A stretch of 64,000 bases of DNA from a bacterium SCSIO 12741 (GTDB lineage Bacteria; Bacteroidota; Bacteroidia; Flavobacteriales_G; Salibacteraceae), in the NCBI GenBank assembly GCA_024398055.1, contig CP073749.1:1238594-1302593 (forward strand), written 5' to 3'. The notes under the pieces are model-generated. The model had not been told where the DNA came from. It made no database searches and worked only from the letters and a program-made list of their open reading frames with translations. The stretch's first letter is position 1; each line of letters starts with the position of its first letter. Positions 17,149-30,984 of this stretch are shown here, in pieces. A program made the position numbers and the translations under genes.

Positions 17149-20100
17149 TTATTTTCCCTGGATTATTTTTCCAGCCAAATCGCTTTCGGAAGAATGGTAT
17201 TGATAGAGGTACAATCCCTGAGACCAGGATTCGTGTGCTACCCGGTGCTCTCCGGCTTCGAGTCTTTCCCACTGATAGCTTTCCAAAACCTTACCGTTAA
17301 CATCCATCACATCCAAACGAACGTCCTCTTCTCCACGTGGTAATTCCAACACCCATTCTAATCCTGTATCATAAATGCGGATAGAAGAAGCAGAAGTCAT
17401 GTCGGCAGACAAGGTGTTTCCAGATACCACAACTTCCTGGGTTAGTACCTGATAACATTCGGCATTTACTAAAGCCAATTGAGATACGGTATACACTCCC
17501 TCCTCTTTAAATATATGTGTAGGATTCGTTTCATTCGATGATTCACCATCACCAAACATCCAGGCGATGGTTCGCATTCCTTCACTTTGATTATAAAAGG
17601 ACACCTCGGTTTCACCAGCCAAATCAGCTCCCAAATTCACCACTTCAAATGCAGCAAAATTACCTGGAGCCTCAGTGATGGTTATAAATTCAGTTTGAGA
17701 TTCGCACTGTCCCTGTACATCGGACACTACGGTCTTGTAAATTCCTGGCGCCAAATCTTTGGCCTTTTGATAATGTCCGTCTACTTCTATTAGCTGACTG
17801 TTTCCCTGAAGATCAAACACACTAAGGGACCAATTTGCAGGATCTACATTACTTAATAGAATGTCACCATCTTCTTTTCCCTGGCAAGTCTCGGTGGAGT
17901 AATACAACTCTTCATAAGGTTGAGACACCTGAAGGACGTAGCGGTGAACATTTTCATTTGCTGTTAAAGAGAATCGGATAGTATCTCCTTGTGACAAGGA
18001 ACGGTAAGTATTTTCCTTTTTGTCATAAAGCACCATACAGAAATTACCCTCTGGCACCTGATCTACATGCAATTCAAATTGTCCGGATTCATGGCAACGG
18101 GTAATTAATGGAACTTCCAGCTTTTTTATTCCAGCTGGAACAGCGCTTACCTGTAATTCATCTCCGCCCATAGCAAATCCTAAGTCAGGAATAGCTCCAG
18201 GATTACCTATGATATAAGCATCGTGCTTGCCATCGAAATCAAGCGTTGCATCTTGCTTGAAATCCAAAGCACAATAAGTAACAATGTCTTCTCCCAAGTT
18301 TTTCAATGACAACTTGAAGCGGTTACTCAATGGCGCCGCTTTGCGGAAAGCTGCATCGGTATCCACTTTGTCATTCTCCTGGAAGGATATGGAATTGGTG
18401 GCACTATTAACGTGTACAAAGAATCCCTGATACTGTGCAATGTAGTTGGAAGGAGAAAGCAAATTAGTAGCTACATAACCACCACCGGTAAATACATAAC
18501 CAACTGCATCAACTCCAACCAAGCTCACTTGATTCCAATCGATGGATGATGGATAAGGATTACCAATCAAGTGCCATCCCATTCCGCCAGTAAAGCTCAA
18601 GTTGGACAAAGTAATGTTTCCTTGATTAGGAGCTCCACTTAAGCTAAAGTCATAGGAAGAGAAATTAGGACCACCAGAATAATAAGAGAGTACATTCAAG
18701 TAGTTGTTGGAATTTCCAATGGACGATGGAGCTTGCCAGCCGTCATTAAAGCTTCCTGATGAACCAGCTGCCGCTTCATTGAAATAGAAGCAGGAAGATA
18801 TTCCAGCACTCGGATTATTAGACCCAGAGAAGCCGTAGAAATACATTCCATTTGGATTGTTGGTCGCATCATACTTAATATCATTCAAAGTAGAGTTGGC
18901 GATCGGTGTTGAGATGTGGCGGTAATCCACTGAGTTTACAGCAGAAATATGTCGCTGAGAAGTAATGGTTCCTGATAAGCTACCTGTAATCTCACCAATG
19001 CTTGCTGTTCCGGACGCATCAGAGATTAAGGTTATTCTTCCCCCCGCGTTAAAATTACCGGTAGTAATCTCCAAACGGGTGCGGATCGATGTAGAACCGG
19101 CTACCACAGCCACTCCAGCTGAGTTGTCAATTTCCAAGACCCCAAATTCTGTCGTTCCGCTGATTTGCTGAGCCGAAGTTCCATTCATCACAATGGATCC
19201 GTTTCCATCGATTTGACCGTAACCGGACCAATCGCCTTCCACGTTCAGGTCATTTCCAGCAAGATCAATCACTCCGCCATTGTTCACAGAGACGGAACGA
19301 ACGGTAGTGGCGGACATTACGGTAACCCGGTGACCAGGTAAAATGGTCACGTCGTCAGTAGGCCCTGGGACTGTTCCTCCCGACCAAGTGCTGGCCGTAT
19401 TCCAGTCTCCATCCTGATTGGACTGGAAGGGCAGATCATCGCCTCCGGTAAATGTTCCCAACTGGGTTACACCTGTAGCCGAAAGCTGGTTAGAGGCTGT
19501 TTGGGCAGAACCAAAGCTGCTCCACTGGTTTGTAGGATCCAGAAAACGGGCAACTATTAAGGATTCCGTTCCCACAATATCAATGTCTGCATAAGACAGG
19601 GTCACATTGTAGTTGAAGTTGCTCACGTTGTTTCCGCCAACAACCCAGTAACGGGTAATTCTATTGGTAGGCGTACCTAAACTTGGGTGATTCTGGTCTA
19701 CAGAACGGAAGGAGAAATAAGCTCCTGAACCCAAGGTAGCCGAGTTTAACGAGAAGGTAATCGGTGTGAACTGAGAGTTATCACCTACAGGAATGGTAAT
19801 CGTAGAACCTGCACTGGAATAAATTTTACGAATCTCACCGTTTCCACTGGCCTGAATGTAAGCCGTGGATTGCCCCCCTGTAATAGTGGCACTGGCGTTC
19901 AATATCAAATTGCTGTTTGCCAATCTCAATCTACCAGAGTTAAGCACTAAACCTTCGGTAAGTGTCAAATCATTGGCCAGCGTAAAGTCTCCGATTATAT
20001 TGAGCTCCAGGTATTTCAAAATGATGTTGGGCATGTTGGATGGAGGCGTAGTTCCTGATGGAACAATCACACTATCCTCAGCCAAGGGCACCTGACCATC

Positions 20101-22353
20101 AGCCCAGTTACAAGCATCAAACCAATCGGTGCTGTTTTCACCCGTCCATTCACCGTGAAGGCCACCTCCAATGATTCCGATTGAAACCACGTTGGAAATG
20201 TGCGTTCCACAAGCAGCAGAAGTTTGAACCCGGTAGTATGTTCGTGCCGCCAAATTAGAGGCGTTGTAAACAGTATCGGTAGCTCCAGAAATATTCGAAA
20301 AATTAGTTCCATCAGAAGAGCTCTGCCATTGAATCGATCCTTCAGAATCAACTACTTCTAAAGTGGTTCCACTTGAAGGACAAATCAATGTATCGGTAGC
20401 AGAAACTACACCGGCAAATACACAAGGCTCAAATTTGATATCGGCCTGACCATAAACCGTGGAGGTAATAATATTGGTAGGCATATTGTTCGTAGAACTG
20501 GCGTAGCAAGATCCATTAATGGTAATCTGCCCGCTGGTGGTCGGCATAGAAACCGAACCGTATAATCCAGAGCTCTGGCTATTCAAGCGAACGGCTACAA
20601 CGTACTGCTGTCCACTGGTTAGGCTCACTGGAGAAATACTTGCGTAAGACCAATCTCCGTTGCCCGTAACATTGGTAGTAGCCAAAACAGATCCAGAAGG
20701 ATAGGAGTACAAGCGAACAGTATGAGTAACTCCGTCTCTCCAACGGCCACCTAATTCAGTAACATTTCCATTGGCGTTGGCCGTGAACCGATAGCCCATA
20801 TTGTAATTCCAGTTCAGGTTTTGAGCCGTGATTGGAGGATTCAAAGCCTGAAGTGGGTAATCCGGGTCGGTTACAGTAATCGTCAAAACGGTAGAGGTAT
20901 CACCAGAACAACCTCCTCCCGAAACGTAAGTTCTATAGTGCATGGTTTGACCCAGAGGTCCGGTATTGTAGGAAGATCCTGTTGCACCACTGATGTTAGT
21001 AAAGTTGCTTCCATCCGTAGATTGTTGCCATTGAACGGAACCAATATTGTTGACCAAATTGATGGTCACACTATCCCATTTATTCAGAGAAGTTTGGCTC
21101 GCACTCAACAATCCGGCATAAGCACATGGCTCGAAACGCATATCAGCTAATCCATAGACATAGCTAGTAGTGGAATTTGTTGGCATCACATTGCTTGAAG
21201 AAACATAAGTTCCATTCAAAATCTCAACCCCGGCCGAATTTTGTGGAGTGGATAGGTTAGAATAGGTTCCGCTCGACTGCGCATTTAACCTCACCGCCAC
21301 TACATATTGCTGTCCGCTGGTCAAATTAACTGGAGTAATAGAGGTGTATGCCCAATCCATAGATCCAGTCACATTAGCCGTAGCTAAAACGGTTCCCGAT
21401 GGGTAAGCATAAAGACGAACGGTATGCTGAACGCCGTCTCTCCAGCGTCCACCCAATTCAGTTACCTGTCCGTTTTGAGTGGCCTCAAAACGATAACCCA
21501 TGTTGTAATTCCAGTTTAGGTTTTGTCCGGTCACAGCAGGATTTTGCACCCGCAAAGGATAAAATGGATCCTCCCGGGAAACAACTAACATGTTTGAAGT
21601 ATCGGAACCGCAACCTCCAGAAGTGGTACGTGTTCTAAAGTACATTTGAGAAGTGATGGCTCCAGAACTGACTTGAATTCCAGTTGCACCAGGCATGTCT
21701 GTAAAGTTCACTCCGTCTGATGAAGATTGCCATTGAATACTTCCAATGTTGTTTTGTACGGTTAGGGTCGTACTATCTCCTTCAATAACTTTTTCTGAAC
21801 CGGCAGTAATGGTACCGGCGAAAATACAGGGAACGAAAGTAATGTCTGCCTGACCATACATGGCCGTGGTCACATTATTGGTTGGCATGTTATTGGATCC
21901 GAAAGCGTAGGAGGTATTTGAAATGGTAATTCCACCTTGATTAATCGGAAGAGCGATGTTGGTTCCGGATGAGTAACACCCGCTTGACTGGGAGTTTAAT
22001 CGAACCGCTACCACGTACTCCGAACCGGCAGTCACGTTTACCGCTGTTCCTAATGTGTTGTAGGCCCAATTAATAGAACCGGTCACATTCGTGGATGCCA
22101 GCAGCGTACCCGACGGATAGGAATACAATCGTACGGTGTGAACCACTCCATCGGTCCATCGACCACCGAGTTGGGTTATCTGTCCATTCACATTTGCAGT
22201 GAATCGATAACCCATATTGTAATTCCAGTTAATATTCTGGTTTGTCAAAGTGGGGTTTTCCAGCTTCAGCGGACTCACCTGCGAGTACGCAGTTGTTACC
22301 CCAATAAATAAAGTTGCAAGCCATAGTAGGCTCGCCATTTTGAATTTCGTCAT
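17149..22353 (-). CDS. giant cell-surface adhesin-like protein (1734 aa) with a T9SS C-terminal sorting domain and three tandem ~240-aa modules
   Basis: Signal peptide; the module NWNYNMGYRF...LGGRW(R/T)DGV.HTVRLYSYPSG..LA.TNVTG..W.Y...VAVRLN.QSSG occurs three times. PKD-like segment later in the protein. C-terminal ~80 aa resemble a Por/T9SS sorting domain. Confidence 0.8.
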   Translation of the reverse strand: MTKFKMASLLWLATLFIGVTTAYSQVSPLKLENPTLTNQNINWNYNMGYRFTANVNGQITQLGGRWTDGVVHTVRLYSYPSGTLLASTNVTGSINWAYNTLGTAVNVTAGSEYVVAVRLNSQSSGCYSSGTNIALPINQGGITISNTSYAFGSNNMPTNNVTTAMYGQADITFVPCIFAGTITAGSEKVIEGDSTTLTVQNNIGSIQWQSSSDGVNFTDMPGATGIQVSSGAITSQMYFRTRTTSGGCGSDTSNMLVVSREDPFYPLRVQNPAVTGQNLNWNYNMGYRFEATQNGQVTELGGRWRDGVQHTVRLYAYPSGTVLATANVTGSMDWAYTSITPVNLTSGQQYVVAVRLNAQSSGTYSNLSTPQNSAGVEILNGTYVSSSNVMPTNSTTSYVYGLADMRFEPCAYAGLLSASQTSLNKWDSVTINLVNNIGSVQWQQSTDGSNFTNISGATGSSYNTGPLGQTMHYRTYVSGGGCSGDTSTVLTITVTDPDYPLQALNPPITAQNLNWNYNMGYRFTANANGNVTELGGRWRDGVTHTVRLYSYPSGSVLATTNVTGNGDWSYASISPVSLTSGQQYVVAVRLNSQSSGLYGSVSMPTTSGQITINGSCYASSTNNMPTNIITSTVYGQADIKFEPCVFAGVVSATDTLICPSSGTTLEVVDSEGSIQWQSSSDGTNFSNISGATDTVYNASNLAARTYYRVQTSAACGTHISNVVSIGIIGGGLHGEWTGENSTDWFDACNWADGQVPLAEDSVIVPSGTTPPSNMPNIILKYLELNIIGDFTLANDLTLTEGLVLNSGRLRLANSNLILNASATITGGQSTAYIQASGNGEIRKIYSSAGSTITIPVGDNSQFTPITFSLNSATLGSGAYFSFRSVDQNHPSLGTPTNRITRYWVVGGNNVSNFNYNVTLSYADIDIVGTESLIVARFLDPTNQWSSFGSAQTASNQLSATGVTQLGTFTGGDDLPFQSNQDGDWNTASTWSGGTVPGPTDDVTILPGHRVTVMSATTVRSVSVNNGGVIDLAGNDLNVEGDWSGYGQIDGNGSIVMNGTSAQQISGTTEFGVLEIDNSAGVAVVAGSTSIRTRLEITTGNFNAGGRITLISDASGTASIGEITGSLSGTITSQRHISAVNSVDYRHISTPIANSTLNDIKYDATNNPNGMYFYGFSGSNNPSAGISSCFYFNEAAAGSSGSFNDGWQAPSSIGNSNNYLNVLSYYSGGPNFSSYDFSLSGAPNQGNITLSNLSFTGGMGWHLIGNPYPSSIDWNQVSLVGVDAVGYVFTGGGYVATNLLSPSNYIAQYQGFFVHVNSATNSISFQENDKVDTDAAFRKAAPLSNRFKLSLKNLGEDIVTYCALDFKQDATLDFDGKHDAYIIGNPGAIPDLGFAMGGDELQVSAVPAGIKKLEVPLITRCHESGQFELHVDQVPEGNFCMVLYDKKENTYRSLSQGDTIRFSLTANENVHRYVLQVSQPYEELYYSTETCQGKEDGDILLSNVDPANWSLSVFDLQGNSQLIEVDGHYQKAKDLAPGIYKTVVSDVQGQCESQTEFITITEAPGNFAAFEVVNLGADLAGETEVSFYNQSEGMRTIAWMFGDGESSNETNPTHIFKEEGVYTVSQLALVNAECYQVLTQEVVVSGNTLSADMTSASSIRIYDTGLEWVLELPRGEEDVRLDVMDVNGKVLESYQWERLEAGEHRVAHESWSQGLYLYQYHSSESDLAGKIIQGK

Positions 22354-26907: not shown

Positions 26908-27056
26908 AAGCTTTATAAAAAGTAAGCGGTAAAAATTGTGGGATCAAGAGAAGAGATGTAGCCGCAAAGACTAAGAATGAGTGTGAGCACGAAAACGAAG
27001 AAAATCAGATTCAAGTACTCCTCGCTTCTCGCTTCTCGCACTCGAACCTGATTTAG

Positions 27057-27128
27057 TAGCCTCATCAGGAATCGAACCTGAATCTTGGGCTCCGGAAACC
27101 CACATACTATCCATTGTACTATGAGGCC
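27057..27128 (-). tRNA. tRNA-Arg (anticodon CCG)
   Basis: Minus-strand cloverleaf GGCCTCA-TA-GTAC-AATGGATA-GTAT-G-TGGGT-TTCCGGA-GCCCA-AGAT-TCAGG-TTCGATT-CCTGA-TGAGGCT-A. G1:U72 wobble at the top of the acceptor stem; CCA not encoded. Confidence 0.65.
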
Positions 27129-27164: not shown

Positions 27165-28898
27165 CTATTCTATAGGAAATTCGAGGTTTAGTCTTTCCGC
27201 CCAGTCCAATTTCTTAGGCAGTTCGCGGGAATTAAACTCCAGATGAATAACCCTTCTTCTCTTCTCGGTTTTGGATTCAGCGGAAGCATGTAGCAGCAGA
27301 GGCTTCATCAACATAACCCCTCCAGCCGGAACTTCGGCAGTATAGGGATTGGACAAGGTAGTGATCAATCGAATTTCCTCGTCGGTCAGTCTTTTTTGGT
27401 GAGATCCGGGAACCACTTTCAAGGCTCCATTTTTATCGTCTGTATCATCCAGGTGAATTCGGATAGTAAATCCACGTTGGTTAATTTCTAAAGGTGGGCA
27501 AACGCTAATCACACCGGATTTTTCGGTCCAGGAAGTAAAGTCTTTTACCTCTTTTTTCTTGTTGACGTTAATGGGAACATCCTGATGCCAGGTAACATAC
27601 CAATTGGCTTTTGGTGGTTTGTCAAAATAGATCGCCTTGGTTAAAAAGGCCTTGGGATCAATGGTACGAATAACGCGTAGCATATTTTGATTAAGAAGAG
27701 CAGAGGACAGATCAGGAACCTCCTGCAACAACCTTCTACAAGCGAATGTTTTTCCGTTCGGATCAATCACGGGATCCAATAGCGCCAATATTTTCCGAAT
27801 TTCCCGACTGGTGTACAATTGATTCAGCTTGGCATAACCCTGCTTTTTCAATTTTTTTCTGGCCTTCACCAAGCCCTTCTCCGAAAGTTCGGTATCGTAC
27901 ATATCCACCGCTCCTTTCAACCGATATCGAATGCTTTGCTTCAAACTATCAGGTGCGATTACTTTCATTCCGTCACCAAAGGCCAAAATCTCTTTTTCCA
28001 ACTCAAAGTTGTGCTGCACCTTCATGGAAATTACCGCTCCGTTCGAATCCCGACTAACCATTTTTTGGGAGGGATGCAAAGGCTTTGTTAATACGTAAGG
28101 GGCGTGTTTCGGCGAAACCAGTAGGGTCACTTTCACCGGATCTTTACCGGCAGCAACCGTTACTCCAATTGCATGTTTAAAATAACTGAGCGCATCAAAG
28201 CCCGGGTAATCGCGGTACCTTTTTTCGGAATGCTCAATTTTTACGATCCGGTCAATGGCCAGGATCATGATGTCCTCCTGCTTCTTTTTCCGTCCCATCA
28301 AAAACCATCGGTTGCGGTACTCTTTGAGCAAAAAGGGATGAAAGTCAAAAGAATTAGCCTGCCTGGCCTTGAAGGATTGGTAGGTTATCCGCAAGGCTTT
28401 CTTGTTTATAATGGATTGGTAAAGAAAGTCGAGATGCTCAAGTCCTTTTAGATCTTCATTCTTTTCAAAATCGATCACCGGTCGGGTATTCGTCTTTTGG
28501 GAATAAATATGATCCTCCAGCTTTTGGACCATCCCGTCCAATTCTCTGAAATGCGAGAAGCCCTGAAATTGCTTCATGAACTCCACCGCTTCACTCAGGT
28601 GACTTAAATCCTGATCGGTAAGCGGAATATTGGTGATACTGTAATTGGGATCTTCGTAGGTATAATACTTCCGATCCACCACTATAATGGGAGCATTGTA
28701 ACCCAGCTTGTCGCTCCTCATCATCTGGATATCAGCCTGAACGGATCTTTTACTCACCCCTTTATCGATACCCTCGTAATCGTATAAGGCTTCTGAACAA
28801 GCCTCAATAAGATCATCAAGAGTCCATTTTCGGTAGCGGTTTTGTAGGCACTTATCAAGGGTTTTGTATCGGATCAGTGCATTTCTATTGACGGGCAT
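27165..28898 (-). CDS. fusion protein: N-terminal HTH + WYL-domain regulator module joined to a C-terminal PhyH-like Fe(II)/2-oxoglutarate dioxygenase domain
   Basis: N-terminus MPVNRNALIRYKTLDKCL...SKRSVQADIQMMR (wHTH typical of WYL proteins). WYL core ITYQSFKARQANSFDFHPFLLKEYRNRWFLMG. C-terminal ~200 aa carry WHQD (HxD) and ...NGALKVVPGSH, then LLLHASAES (distal His), as in the phytanoyl-CoA dioxygenase family. Confidence 0.75.
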   Translation of the reverse strand: MPVNRNALIRYKTLDKCLQNRYRKWTLDDLIEACSEALYDYEGIDKGVSKRSVQADIQMMRSDKLGYNAPIIVVDRKYYTYEDPNYSITNIPLTDQDLSHLSEAVEFMKQFQGFSHFRELDGMVQKLEDHIYSQKTNTRPVIDFEKNEDLKGLEHLDFLYQSIINKKALRITYQSFKARQANSFDFHPFLLKEYRNRWFLMGRKKKQEDIMILAIDRIVKIEHSEKRYRDYPGFDALSYFKHAIGVTVAAGKDPVKVTLLVSPKHAPYVLTKPLHPSQKMVSRDSNGAVISMKVQHNFELEKEILAFGDGMKVIAPDSLKQSIRYRLKGAVDMYDTELSEKGLVKARKKLKKQGYAKLNQLYTSREIRKILALLDPVIDPNGKTFACRRLLQEVPDLSSALLNQNMLRVIRTIDPKAFLTKAIYFDKPPKANWYVTWHQDVPINVNKKKEVKDFTSWTEKSGVISVCPPLEINQRGFTIRIHLDDTDDKNGALKVVPGSHQKRLTDEEIRLITTLSNPYTAEVPAGGVMLMKPLLLHASAESKTEKRRRVIHLEFNSRELPKKLDWAERLNLEFPIE

Positions 28899-29104
28899 TT
28901 CTGGGAATTTTCGAGAAAATTAAAAAAAAGATTTTGCCACGCAAAAAGATTGCGCAATAGCCCTATACGTTTGCTTCGTGAAATTGAAAAACAACCAACA
29001 CATGGGAGGATAAATCCCAACCAATAAGAATCAGATTTCAGCTTGAGGAAGCCGACCATAACCATCCAAATCAACCTCCTCAGGTGCAACCAAAATCTGA
29101 TTTT

Positions 29105-29176
29105 GGAGCGGTAGCTTAGTTAGTCAAGCGCCCGGTTGAAGCCCGGGAGTCAGGGGTGCAATTCCTCTCCGCTCCA
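29105..29176 (+). tRNA. tRNA-Phe (anticodon GAA), with atypical D- and T-loops
   Basis: GGAGCGG-TA-GCTT-AGTTAGTC-AAGC-G-CCCGG-TTGAAGC-CCGGG-AGTC-AGGGG-TGCAATT-CCTCT-CCGCTCC-A. Position 18 is A and position 55 is G, where G18/U55 are expected. Confidence 0.6.
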
Positions 29177-29505
29177 CAACTGACCATTCTAACCATTCTT
29201 CGGAATGTAAAGCAATGGCCACGGAATTCTTATCTGCTGAATATCGAAGGGACGCCCAAGATGTAACGGATAAGGAATTCCAACATTCGGAGAAAGATCG
29301 GTGGAAGCACTACTGGCGCTGGTGGTTGGTAGTTTGCATCAGGAAGTGGTTAAAGTCCACGGCTCTTACACCAAGCGGGAGCCACAGTTTGGAAAAGTCC
29401 TGATGACTGCTGAAACCAATCTTATCTGAATTTGAGAGTCGAGATTCCAGACTCGAGCTCCGATTGCTGTCGGACGAGAGTCGAGGACAGGCTTTCTCTT
29501 GATCT

Positions 29506-29577
29506 GGTCCTTTGGGGTAATGGCTATCCTTCCTGACTGTCTATCAGGCGATACGGGTTCAATTCCCGTAAGGACCG
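29506..29577 (+). tRNA. tRNA-Asp (anticodon GTC)
   Basis: Acceptor GGTCCTT/AAGGACC, anticodon arm CCTGA-CTGTCTA-TCAGG, T-arm ACGGG-TTCAATT-CCCGT, discriminator G. Confidence 0.6.
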
Positions 29578-29597
29578 CAATTTCAGGGACGAGTTTG

Positions 29598-29641: not shown

Positions 29642-30328
29642 TTAGGCTGCTTTCCTTGGGGTGTTTTTTTTCTTTCTGGCCACCACCTTCATCTTCTTTT
29701 TGGAAGGAGTTTGGTTCTTGACTGGCTTTTTCTTGCTTGATGCCACCTTTTTGGCCTTTGTGGATTTACTGCTCTTGATTTTCTTCCTGGAAGTAGGCTT
29801 TTGCTTTTTGGCTTCCGACTTTTTCTTGGATAGCGTTTTCTTCTTAGCCTCTGCCTTCTTTTTGGCGACCGATTTTTTCTTCTTGAGTTCAGCCTTCTTC
29901 TTTTTTGCTTCGGCTTTTTTCTTTTTCAATTTGGCTTTCTTCTTCGCTTCTGCCTCTTTCCTGGCCAGCGCTTTTTTCGCTTTTAACTCGGCCTTTCTTT
30001 TCGCCTCTGCTTTTTTCTTCGTCAAAGCCTTTTTCCTCTTTAGCTCAGCTTTCTTTTTCGCTAAGGCCTTCGCTTTTTTCAACTCTGCTTTTCTTTTTGC
30101 TTCTGCCTTCTTCTTGGCAAGTGCCTTTTTCTTTTTCAACTCGGCCTTCTTTTTGGCTTCTGCTTTCTTTTTAGCCAAGGCCTTTTTCTTTTTGAGCTCC
30201 GCTTTCTTCTCTTCCTTCTTCTTGGCCAAGGCTTTTTTCTTCTTCAACAGAGCCTTCTTTTTCAATTCCTCTTTTTTAGCTTCTTCCTTTTTCTTCTTTG
30301 AATTTGTCTTCTTTTTAGAACTACTCAT
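29642..30328 (-). CDS. lysine/alanine-repeat basic protein, histone H1-like (putative nucleoid-associated DNA-binding protein)
   Basis: 228 aa, almost entirely K/A/E/L in degenerate ~13-aa AKKKAELKKKKAL repeats. The Phe/Ser/Leu-rich ORFs on the opposite strand are artefacts of the low-complexity DNA. Confidence 0.55.
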   Translation of the reverse strand: MSSSKKKTNSKKKKEEAKKEELKKKALLKKKKALAKKKEEKKAELKKKKALAKKKAEAKKKAELKKKKALAKKKAEAKRKAELKKAKALAKKKAELKRKKALTKKKAEAKRKAELKAKKALARKEAEAKKKAKLKKKKAEAKKKKAELKKKKSVAKKKAEAKKKTLSKKKSEAKKQKPTSRKKIKSSKSTKAKKVASSKKKPVKNQTPSKKKMKVVARKKKNTPRKAA

Positions 30329-30906
30329 GGTATTTGATTTTAGAACCGCAAATTCACTTGATCAAGGTGAAGCGGAAGGATTCATATTAATTTGACTAAT
30401 GCCAATTTTCTGACACGCCAACAAAGTTAATTTAGCATTTACGCAATGTTAATGCACTGTTAAGCAAAACAATTAAACATGAGGTGTTAAAAACCTTACA
30501 AAACCATATAAACCAGCAATTTAAATCAAACACACATAAAACTAAAGCCACTTCAATAATTATAAATAATGACTACAAAAACCGATAATACGTATCATGT
30601 CTGCGTTTACATTTATGGAGCCTAAAGATTGATTCGCGGCAATCAGCATGGCCGCTTTTCACTGATTATCAGCAACTCTCAAACTATTTTTCAAAAAAAA
30701 TATCGATACGCAATTAGGCTGCGTATTGCCATTTCACCTTTGTCTCATCAAATTAAAAAACGTTCTTTTAAAATATTGTGCTGAGGCACGGAAGACAGTA
30801 AATCATTCTCTCTTGGAAAACCTGACCAGGGTTTCTGTATAGCCCGGGGGTGTAATTAGGACTACCTATTTATATGCCGTTTCCAGGTTAGGATATTTAC
30901 TACCAC

Positions 30907-30984
30907 TCTGTAGGTCAAGGGTTCGAATCCCTTATTCCGGATAACCGGAATTAGTTCAGTTAGGTTAGAACAACAGACTCAGGG
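30907..30984 (+). ncRNA. tRNA-like gene in permuted order: canonical 3' half (30907-30941), TAA linker, canonical 5' half (30945-30984)
   Basis: 3' half: TCTGT-AGGTC-AAGGG-TTCGAAT-CCCTT-ATTCCGG-A. 5' half: CCGGAAT-TA-GTTC-AGTTAGGTTA-GAAC-A-ACAGA-CTCAGGG. All four stems pair perfectly between the halves (acceptor 7/7, D 4/4, anticodon 5/5, T 5/5), but the 3' half lies upstream of the 5' half. Confidence 0.5.

Follow-up and report, generated by a model that had tools for sequence, protein, structure and literature searches.

DriD of Caulobacter crescentus and PafBC of actinobacteria are DNA-damage activators in which a winged helix-turn-helix (wHTH) domain is followed by a helical linker and the domains WYL and WCX, the last of which is the dimerization domain of DriD-type regulators (DriD structure paper). 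DriD responds to single-stranded DNA and, as a WCX dimer, recognizes the operator CGAC-N7-GTCG, which has an AT-rich gap and is also present at its own gene. In DriD-dependent promoters, the DriD site stands in for a missing -35 element, and its spacing to the -10 element is fixed. Here, we analyze a 577-amino-acid (aa) protein with the same module order, encoded within a 64,000-nt stretch of the genome of bacterium SCSIO 12741, a member of the Bacteroidota (contig CP073749.1, positions 1,238,594 to 1,302,593; hereafter ‘the window’). The protein shares only ~15% identity with DriD and PafBC and carries, after WCX, a ~230-aa enzymatic domain that both of them lack. Whereas the DriD and PafBC regulons serve DNA repair, its family is associated with RNA repair (RtcB, Ro60, Band-7, RlaP and tRNA-like RNAs), and its signal is predicted to be damaged RNA rather than single-stranded DNA. 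The best overall explanation, to which we assign a probability of roughly 0.55, is that the protein is a transcription factor dedicated to an RNA-repair regulon of the Bacteroidota, and that its attached oxygenase would act on, or bind, the species being sensed.

A functional counterpart is known from Enterobacteria, where RtcR controls the rtcBA and rsr-yrlBA-rtcBA operons, which are of the same kind as those described below (RtcB with or without Ro60 and a Y RNA). RtcR is a sigma-54-dependent CARF-AAA+-HTH protein without an attached enzyme, and none of these domains was returned for the 577-aa protein by Pfam or NCBIfam; it is a functional analog of the latter, not a relative. Through its CARF domain, RtcR senses broken-RNA fragments. 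The literature regards CARF as a sensor analogous to WYL and contains the proposal that transcription factors of both types detect such RNAs and control RNA repair; a later paper from the Burroughs and Aravind group states that some WYL transcription factors regulate RNA-repair pathways. Operons combining RtcB, Band-7 and a ‘band-7-associated tRNA’, or Ro60 and a Y RNA, are quoted in bioRxiv 10.1101/312249, where the idea of the band-7-associated tRNA and the Y RNA is attributed to Burroughs & Aravind 2016; the repair unit in our window and the Ro60 and RlaP variants at related loci match these descriptions.

Enzymes are established companions of WYL domains. Those listed in the literature (WYL-Cas3, WYL-nuclease and WYL-helicase fusions, as well as nucleotidyltransferases) all act on nucleic acids, and no oxygenase is among them. 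With such proteins, and with CARF-nuclease effectors, the 577-aa protein shares the principle of a ligand sensor joined to a catalytic module. However, the enzyme usually replaces the HTH in the listed WYL fusions, whereas the 577-aa protein retains a complete transcription factor, to which an oxygenase has been added. The protein likewise differs from the WYL regulators BrxR, CapW and their CRISPR-associated counterparts, which are encoded beside the defense systems that they control, in that its family is encoded beside RNA-repair genes. An earlier reading of this DNA from its letters alone (hereafter ‘the sequence-only reading’) knew of no described WYL-dioxygenase architecture. In agreement with this, a literature search that did not cover the survey of Burroughs & Aravind 2016 returned no description of the WYL-dioxygenase fusion, of a Tpt1/KptA fusion, or of the operator and -33 promoter rule reported below; the regulator itself may already be included in that survey.

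A DriD/PafBC-type regulator with an appended dioxygenase domain

The gene and its domains are as follows.

27165..28898, minus strand: gene for the wHTH - helical linker - WYL - WCX - PhyH-type dioxygenase protein, 577 aa, ATG start (open reading frame (ORF), Pfam, AlphaFold2 (AF2), Foldseek, homologs)
28629..28898, minus strand: winged-HTH DNA-binding domain, residues ~1-90 (AF2 secondary structure, superposition on the DriD wHTH, invariant columns)
28233..28439, minus strand: WYL domain, residues 154-222, predicted nucleic-acid/ligand sensor (PF13280, PADLOC, invariant columns)
27909..28139, minus strand: WCX domain, residues 254-330 (PF25583)
27249..27848, minus strand: PhyH-type Fe(II)/2-oxoglutarate dioxygenase domain, residues 351-550 (PF05721, Foldseek, profile alignment)

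Searches against Pfam placed WYL (PF13280, residues 154-222, E 3.7e-12), WCX (PF25583, residues 254-330, E 5.8e-12) and PhyH (PF05721, residues 351-550, E 5.9e-15), each above its gathering score, with the PhyH match spanning profile positions 2-213 of 213. No Pfam HTH model matched the 577-aa protein, and its N-terminal domain was recognized through structure. The AF2 model, built with 25 homologs, has a mean predicted local distance difference test score of 84 (mostly >90 in the dioxygenase half) and begins with three helices and a beta-wing (H5-19, H27-42, H50-61, E71-74, E78-81). In Foldseek searches against the PDB, the N-terminal half superposed on full-length DriD and PafBC, with E-values as low as 5e-14 and a probability of 1.0 for DriD chains. 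Residues that are invariant in the homolog alignment include M60-R61-S62 and the run from K64 to I71 in the wHTH, and N196-R197-W198-F199 in the WYL domain. In its domain features, and in the palindromic operator described below, the 577-aa protein is a DriD/PafBC-type wHTH-WYL-WCX regulator. The three-module layout put forward in the sequence-only reading is hence borne out by Pfam, the AF2 model and Foldseek alike.

This architecture is far from unique. Protein database clusters hold >120 homologs of ~573 aa with the same three domains and 59-67% identity, from Roseivirga, Flexithrix, Limibacter, Wocania, Winogradskyella, Psychroserpens and many metagenome-assembled genomes (MAGs); Flavivirga and Algibacter have the fusion as well, and public databases annotate the family only as ‘WYL domain-containing protein’ or ‘YafY’. 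A survey of gene neighborhoods, in which one genome per species was scanned, yielded 80 loci (referred to by L numbers where they need to be told apart). The regulator is fused at 37 of them, and at the remaining 43 consists of the wHTH-WYL-WCX part only, at a similar identity (53-63%). No separate PhyH gene was found within +/-8 kb of the regulator at the 43 unfused loci, that is, no ‘Rosetta stone’ arrangement. Judging from these homologs, the fusion is a conserved Bacteroidota family and not a rarity, and the sequence-only reading’s proposal to search other Bacteroidota for it has found a broad answer. The same reading had considered that ORF 27165-28898 might be an artifact, with two genes merged by a sequencing indel. 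This idea is refuted with near certainty by the >120 independent homologs of equal length and domain order, by an alignment that runs colinear and unbroken through the domain junction (residues 330-360), and by the recurrence of the fusion at the 37 species-representative loci.

In two cases, the same scaffold carries another enzyme. L061 (8001-9608) and L067 (1750-3354) encode wHTH-WYL-WCX proteins with a C-terminal Tpt1/KptA RNA 2'-phosphotransferase domain (PF01885, E 4e-48 and 3e-52, respectively). Both are recent paralogs of an unfused RtcB-adjacent regulator, with L060 and L061 stemming from one Mucilaginibacter MAG. The L067 gene lies 3' of RtcB on the same strand, and no operator of the type described below was found near either of the two fused genes.

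The regulator family neighbors RNA-repair genes

The recurrent neighbors of the regulator, grouped into clusters and identified by Pfam, are RtcB, SPFH/Band-7, Ro60 (TROVE plus vWA_Ro60) and two RlaP nucleotidyltransferases, all of which lie upstream of the regulator and on the opposite strand. RtcB (neighbor cluster 1) was present in 45 loci and Band-7 (neighbor cluster 2) in 24. When only loci with at least 3 kb of upstream sequence are counted, RtcB, Band-7 or Ro is divergent from the regulator at 27 of 31 fused and 23 of 31 unfused loci (50 of 62 in total), and the intergenic gap between the regulator and the repair gene is often just 33-260 nt.

A predicted operator in the place of the -33 promoter element

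The predicted operator is a 23-bp inverted repeat, ACTRCGCA-N7-TGCGYAGT, which emerged from a search for enriched words in the 250 nt upstream of the regulator genes. The center of the repeat typically lies ~50 nt before the start codon, and strict half-sites are present in 55 of 79 regulator upstream regions. Across the 1.126 Mb of loci, we counted 115 copies of the 17-nt core (RCGYA-N7-TRCGY), and 73 of 81 loci have one or more; about two copies in all would be expected from a chance rate of 0.10 per 64 kb, estimated on shuffled window sequence with the slightly stricter core RCGCA-N7-TGCGY. Extra copies of the core lie directly before RtcB (L001, L003, L007-L010, L016, L049), Ro60 (L001, L043, L060, L065, L069, L077-L079), RlaP (L012, L022) and the tRNA/Band-7 unit (L008, L011). 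The regulator family, as far as these sites can tell, has a conserved palindromic operator at its own gene and before each of the RNA-repair units (RtcB, Ro60, RlaP, tRNA/Band-7).

The sites follow a promoter rule. On the side of the repair genes, core and TTTG are exactly 14 nt apart at 77 of 112 sites and 15 nt apart at 4 more, and nothing comparable was seen across the core sites in the direction of the regulator gene. In the Bacteroidota, the -7 promoter element is TAnnTTTG, and TTTG is its conserved end. Given the 14-nt distance, the 23-bp operator would be centered near -33, in place of the -33 element; the promoter elements of these operator/TTTG units are putative. The resemblance to DriD extends to the palindromic operator with its 7-nt AT-rich gap, the site at the regulator’s own gene, and the predicted position in place of the -35/-33 element, with a constant spacing to the -10/-7 element.

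Position and fold bear on the polarity of regulation. The DriD-like location of the operator and the -10/-7 spacing favor an activator, and by analogy with DriD we lean toward activation. The alternative is a repressor that occupies the -33 region until ligand releases it, like BrxR and CapW, with the dioxygenase destroying or converting the inducer and so restoring repression. Several characterized WYL regulators do repress, WYL transcription factors have been described as negative one-component regulators, and the operator overlaps the core promoter. However, the fold is nearest to the activators DriD and PafBC, and the predicted target promoters show the hallmark of DriD-dependent ones, as they retain a strong -7 box and have the operator, at constant spacing, in the position of a -33 element. 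We consider repression with enzymatic removal of the inducer less likely than activation.

The predicted regulon in the window

The operators and the elements associated with them in the window are listed below, together with the tRNA gene on the far side of the regulator.

28936..28958, plus strand: operator site 1, GCCACGCAAAAAGATTGCGCAAT; core 41-57 nt upstream of the regulator ATG, TTTG at 28970-28973
29105..29177, plus strand: tRNA-Phe(GAA); ARAGORN, Rfam 59.4 bits; ~130 nt downstream of the site-1 promoter
29506..29578, plus strand: tRNA-Asp(GUC); ARAGORN, Rfam 57.6 bits; downstream of tRNA-Phe
30705..30727, plus strand: operator site 2, GATACGCAATTAGGCTGCGTATT; TTTG at 30739-30742; predicted promoter of the RNA-repair unit
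30850..31080 (approximate boundaries), plus strand: YrlA-like/tRNA-like noncoding RNA; Rfam; upstream of Band-7
31455..32546, plus strand: SPFH/Band-7 protein, 363 aa; PF01145, E 6e-35
32663..33823, plus strand: RtcB RNA ligase, 386 aa; PF01139, E 8e-106
63499..63521, minus strand: operator site 3; TTTG at 63484-63487, minus strand; third predicted promoter of the same type
27056..27128, minus strand: tRNA-Arg(CCG); ARAGORN; 36 nt downstream of the regulator stop codon, same strand

Within the 64 kb there are exactly three core operators (0.10 expected), all of which obey the TTTG spacing. From site 1, the predicted promoter points along the plus strand to tRNA-Phe(GAA), a probable member of the regulon, and then to tRNA-Asp(GUC), which is possibly co-transcribed with it. 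Site 2 precedes the noncoding RNA, Band-7 and RtcB. The RNA scored 41.5 bits (E 7e-8) with the Rfam YrlA family, whose gathering score of 69 it does not reach, and 30.9 bits with the Rfam tRNA model, just above the gathering score of 29; ARAGORN made no call. The RNA has a folding z-score of -2.4 and shows tandem modules in the order T-arm, D-arm, T-arm, D-arm, anticodon-like arm, and is probably a ‘band-7-associated tRNA’ or a Y-RNA-like cofactor RNA. Site 3 lies 35 kb from the regulator and points leftward into an ORF-poor stretch, from 63470 to 62900; in this target region of ~500 nt, we found no Rfam match, only tiny ORFs and no significant fold (z -1.5). The predicted regulon of the window comprises tRNA-Phe/tRNA-Asp, the YrlA-like RNA with Band-7 and RtcB, and one target of site 3.

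The order of operator and tRNA is not peculiar to the window: L005 shows it with tRNA-Lys, and L008, L011 and L030 each with tRNA-Tyr. More broadly, ordinary-looking tRNA genes located 90-150 nt behind an operator/-7-box promoter and ahead of Band-7 are found in the window, L005, L008, L011, L030, L080 and L002. Low-scoring tRNA-like matches also lie between Band-7 and the regulator in L003 and L035. These arrangements agree with the idea of a band-7-associated tRNA and a Y RNA cited above. In view of this layout at other loci and of the tRNA-like RNAs in L003 and L035, the tRNAs in the window are probably part of the system. The identities of the operator-linked tRNAs are Phe, Asp, Tyr (three), Lys (two), Asn and Pro, several of which are classic anticodon-nuclease targets, suggesting, speculatively, that they are damage-induced replacement tRNAs. 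As a separate observation, L015, L016 and L026 contain tRNA gene arrays 1-3 kb downstream of the regulator; like tRNA-Arg(CCG) on that side of the regulator in the window, these may reflect either lineage synteny or a function.

These data also speak to the setting of the locus, which the sequence-only reading had described as island-like, with ties to mobile elements or defense. A defense- or mobile-element WYL regulator inserted beside tRNA genes in a genomic island might account for the CRISPR-associated WYL models in PADLOC that match the protein (E 1.3e-26 for a WYL model), and the gene does lie between tRNA-Arg and tRNA-Phe, as that reading had noted and ARAGORN confirmed. Yet the PADLOC matches of the regulator are generic WYL-domain matches only. 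The GC content is flat across the region (0.42-0.47, except for one AT-rich intergenic kilobase), no integrase or defense gene is among the recurrent neighbors, and the RNA-repair neighborhood seen at 50 of 62 informative loci is kept across many Bacteroidota lineages; the linkage that is conserved is to RtcB, Band-7, Ro60 and RlaP instead of to defense genes. Rather than being landmarks of insertion, tRNA-Phe and tRNA-Asp stand behind the regulator’s own operator/promoter, as do tRNAs at other loci. An island or defense origin is, in our view, highly improbable.

The active site of the dioxygenase domain

The C-terminal half belongs to the PhyH fold, a point that the sequence-only reading had left to profile searches. 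Besides the full-length PhyH profile match, Foldseek aligned it to the PDB structures of SnoK, proline hydroxylase, FtmOx1, AviO1 and EctD (E ~1e-10, at most 18% identity), with target-normalized template-modeling scores of 0.5-0.7 for the PhyH-class matches. The predicted Fe ligands are H438 and D440 (WHQD) and H537 (LLLHAS), and the predicted 2-oxoglutarate contacts S539 and R548. In the domain profile alignment, H537 corresponds to H264 and R548 to R275 of PhyH, and WHQD to the HxD motif of MysH. The three Fe ligands are invariant in 25 of 25 homologs, and also in 26 of the 27 loci L001-L027 (not L019) plus the window. S539 and R548 are likewise invariant in this active clade, with Ser at H+2 and Arg at H+11 as in the PhyH class. 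The complete 2-His-1-carboxylate triad claimed by the sequence-only reading is therefore present as H438, D440 and H537, though not in the form proposed: the His of ‘VVPGSH’ (H500) is no ligand, being Gln in 4 of 25 close homologs and lying at a position that is not a ligand in PhyH. Its view that the Arg-rich tail is suited to 2-oxoglutarate fits the complete cofactor-binding set, in which R548 aligns with PhyH R275. The strict conservation of the catalytic set in the window and in L001-L027 except L019 implies that the enzyme is under selection in that clade, and the C-terminal domain of the 577-aa protein is likely a catalytically active Fe(II)/2-oxoglutarate dioxygenase.

The described members of the class (human PhyH, EctD, SnoK/SnoN, FtmOx1, AviO1, MysH) share the fold, the HxD...H motif, the Ser at H+2 and the Arg at H+11. 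However, they are stand-alone enzymes acting on small molecules, whereas the domain studied here is strongly basic and forms part of a DNA-binding regulator. Its many stand-alone relatives (247 representatives at E <= 1e-30, ~235 aa, 35-50% identity) carry the same active-site motifs and are annotated only as ‘phytanoyl-CoA dioxygenase family’. The fused domains have a mean isoelectric point of 9.5 and a net charge of +9.6, as compared to 7.5 and +0.6 for these relatives; most fused domains that have lost the metal ligands are likewise basic. No AlkB or TET/JBP family match was obtained for the 577-aa protein in Pfam, in NCBIfam or among its 50 best PDB fold matches, so that any action on RNA would be that of a PhyH-class enzyme, which would be new. 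In Flavivirga abyssicola (L081 8900-16700) and Zunongwangia (L084 640-7760), stand-alone relatives adjoin long arrays of small genes, nearly all without a Pfam match (two matches to domains of unknown function in L084).

Two proteins combine the dioxygenase with the wHTH and linker and lack both WYL and WCX. One of them, P0175 (L085 6001-7209), has an intact ORF, and an operator-like site precedes it at 58 nt; it has lost the 2-oxoglutarate-binding Arg and has no RtcB nearby. The other, P0252, has lost the metal ligands. We considered the pair as proof of sensing by the dioxygenase only and set them aside as rare offshoots, P0175 being without RtcB or Arg and P0252 ligand-less.

Proposed function

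With operators and neighbors taken together, we are confident that the 577-aa protein regulates an RNA-repair regulon. The signal would most likely be broken RNA, such as tRNA fragments or cyclic-phosphate RNA ends, by analogy with RtcR. The regulator would occupy the operator near -33 of the repair promoters, much as the DriD site replaces the -35 element, and the PhyH-class domain would bind or oxidize the nucleic-acid or nucleotide-derived species sensed by the WYL domain. Oxidation could leave the RNA modified, marked or repaired, or could consume the signal and reset the switch. In lineages devoid of the metal ligands, the domain would persist as a binding or regulatory module. The notion of an enzyme coupled to ligand sensing, already voiced in the sequence-only reading, is retained here as the best reading.

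That the substrate of the dioxygenase is RNA or a nucleotide-derived ligand is a tentative element of this proposal. A role directed at nucleic acids or nucleotides is favored by the RNA-end enzyme Tpt1/KptA that holds the same position in paralogs, by the fused domains being far more basic than the stand-alone ones, and by the nucleic-acid-acting partners of WYL domains elsewhere. The retention of ligand-less domains and the small-molecule habits of the PhyH class favor a sensory or allosteric role instead. With the regulator and regulon unchanged, the dioxygenase could be a metabolic or redox co-sensor that does not act on nucleic acid: occupancy or turnover of Fe(II), 2-oxoglutarate, O2 or a small molecule would tune DNA binding, and the domain might hydroxylate the regulator itself. 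RNA-repair expression would then follow the status of iron, oxygen or carbon, or respond to some toxic small molecule. The solved structural relatives are all oxygenases of small molecules or amino acids, the stand-alone relatives share the active-site motifs and are without RNA-repair context, several lineages keep ligand-less versions, as for a binding or allosteric module, and the rare wHTH-dioxygenase without WYL, with its operator-like site upstream, exists. Against a co-sensor stands, next to the Tpt1/KptA paralogs and the basic charge, the strict conservation of the catalytic set in the large main clade, which indicates that chemistry is selected there. On balance, we find such a co-sensor, the main rival to our reading, rather unlikely.

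Several observations weigh against the proposal of a repair-specific regulator whose oxygenase handles the sensed species. First, about 10 of the 37 fused loci (L019, L028-L029, L031-L037) lack the HxD...H ligands and the Arg yet keep the domain, and L030 keeps HxD and has lost the distal His. The ligand-less domains are still recognizably related (22-42% identity), and the regulators that carry them still adjoin RtcB, Ro or Band-7 with an operator. In a rough neighbor-joining tree of the N-terminal module, which has no support values, these forms are scattered among active ones, a pattern only suggestive of repeated loss of the catalytic residues. As metal ligands were lost and the domain was kept, catalysis appears dispensable for at least part of its role. 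Second, the PhyH-class relatives with solved structures, none above 18% identity, all have small molecules or amino acids as substrates, and no RNA-repair context was found for the stand-alone relatives in the four genomes sampled, where their neighbors were variable and uninformative; the basic charge of the fused domains could merely reflect closeness to DNA. Third, an operator near -33 equally suits a repressor, and the WYL proteins BrxR, CapW and sll7009 are repressors. Fourth, the regulator in the window is ~2 kb from the Band-7/RtcB unit and does not adjoin it. Lastly, the DNA binding, ligand and regulatory polarity of the family are all predicted from sequence.

A bolder version of the proposal has the transcription factor chemically process the RNA-damage signal that it senses, with a regulon that includes replacement tRNAs for cleaved ones. 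The WYL domain would recruit the oxygenase to RNA that is broken or chemically damaged, such as tRNA fragments or the tRNA-like RNA under the same control. The oxygenase would then repair or mark this RNA by oxidation, or would set the timing of the response by consuming the inducer. We consider this complete scenario unlikely as it stands; if true, it would provide the first RNA- or nucleotide-directed oxygenase of the PhyH class.

Other features of the window

A 228-aa, Lys/Ala-rich ORF of low complexity (29642-30328, minus strand), histone-H1-like and without a Pfam match, lies between the regulator and the repair unit. At Flavobacteriaceae loci, a tetratricopeptide-repeat protein with a poly-Lys tail (neighbor cluster 8) occupies a similar place. 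Farther away, a 1734-aa ORF (17149-22353, minus strand) contains three internal repeats of ~260 aa (‘...QNLNWNYNMGYRF...RLYSYPSG...’) behind a signal-peptide-like N-terminus; this large protein is probably secreted or located at the surface and has no connection with the regulator.

Implications for RNA repair in Bacteroidota

To our knowledge, the triggers and repair targets of the widespread bacterial RtcB/Ro60/Band-7 operons are largely unknown outside Enterobacteria. For the Bacteroidota, the present analysis supplies a defined regulator, a predicted 23-bp operator and a promoter rule, rendering the whole regulon predictable from sequence. The dioxygenase appended to this regulator, and Tpt1/KptA in its sister proteins, suggest that the regulator also takes part in the pathway as an enzyme. 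The oxidative chemistry on RNA or on a signaling nucleotide that is suggested here would constitute a step that is absent from current models of RNA repair.

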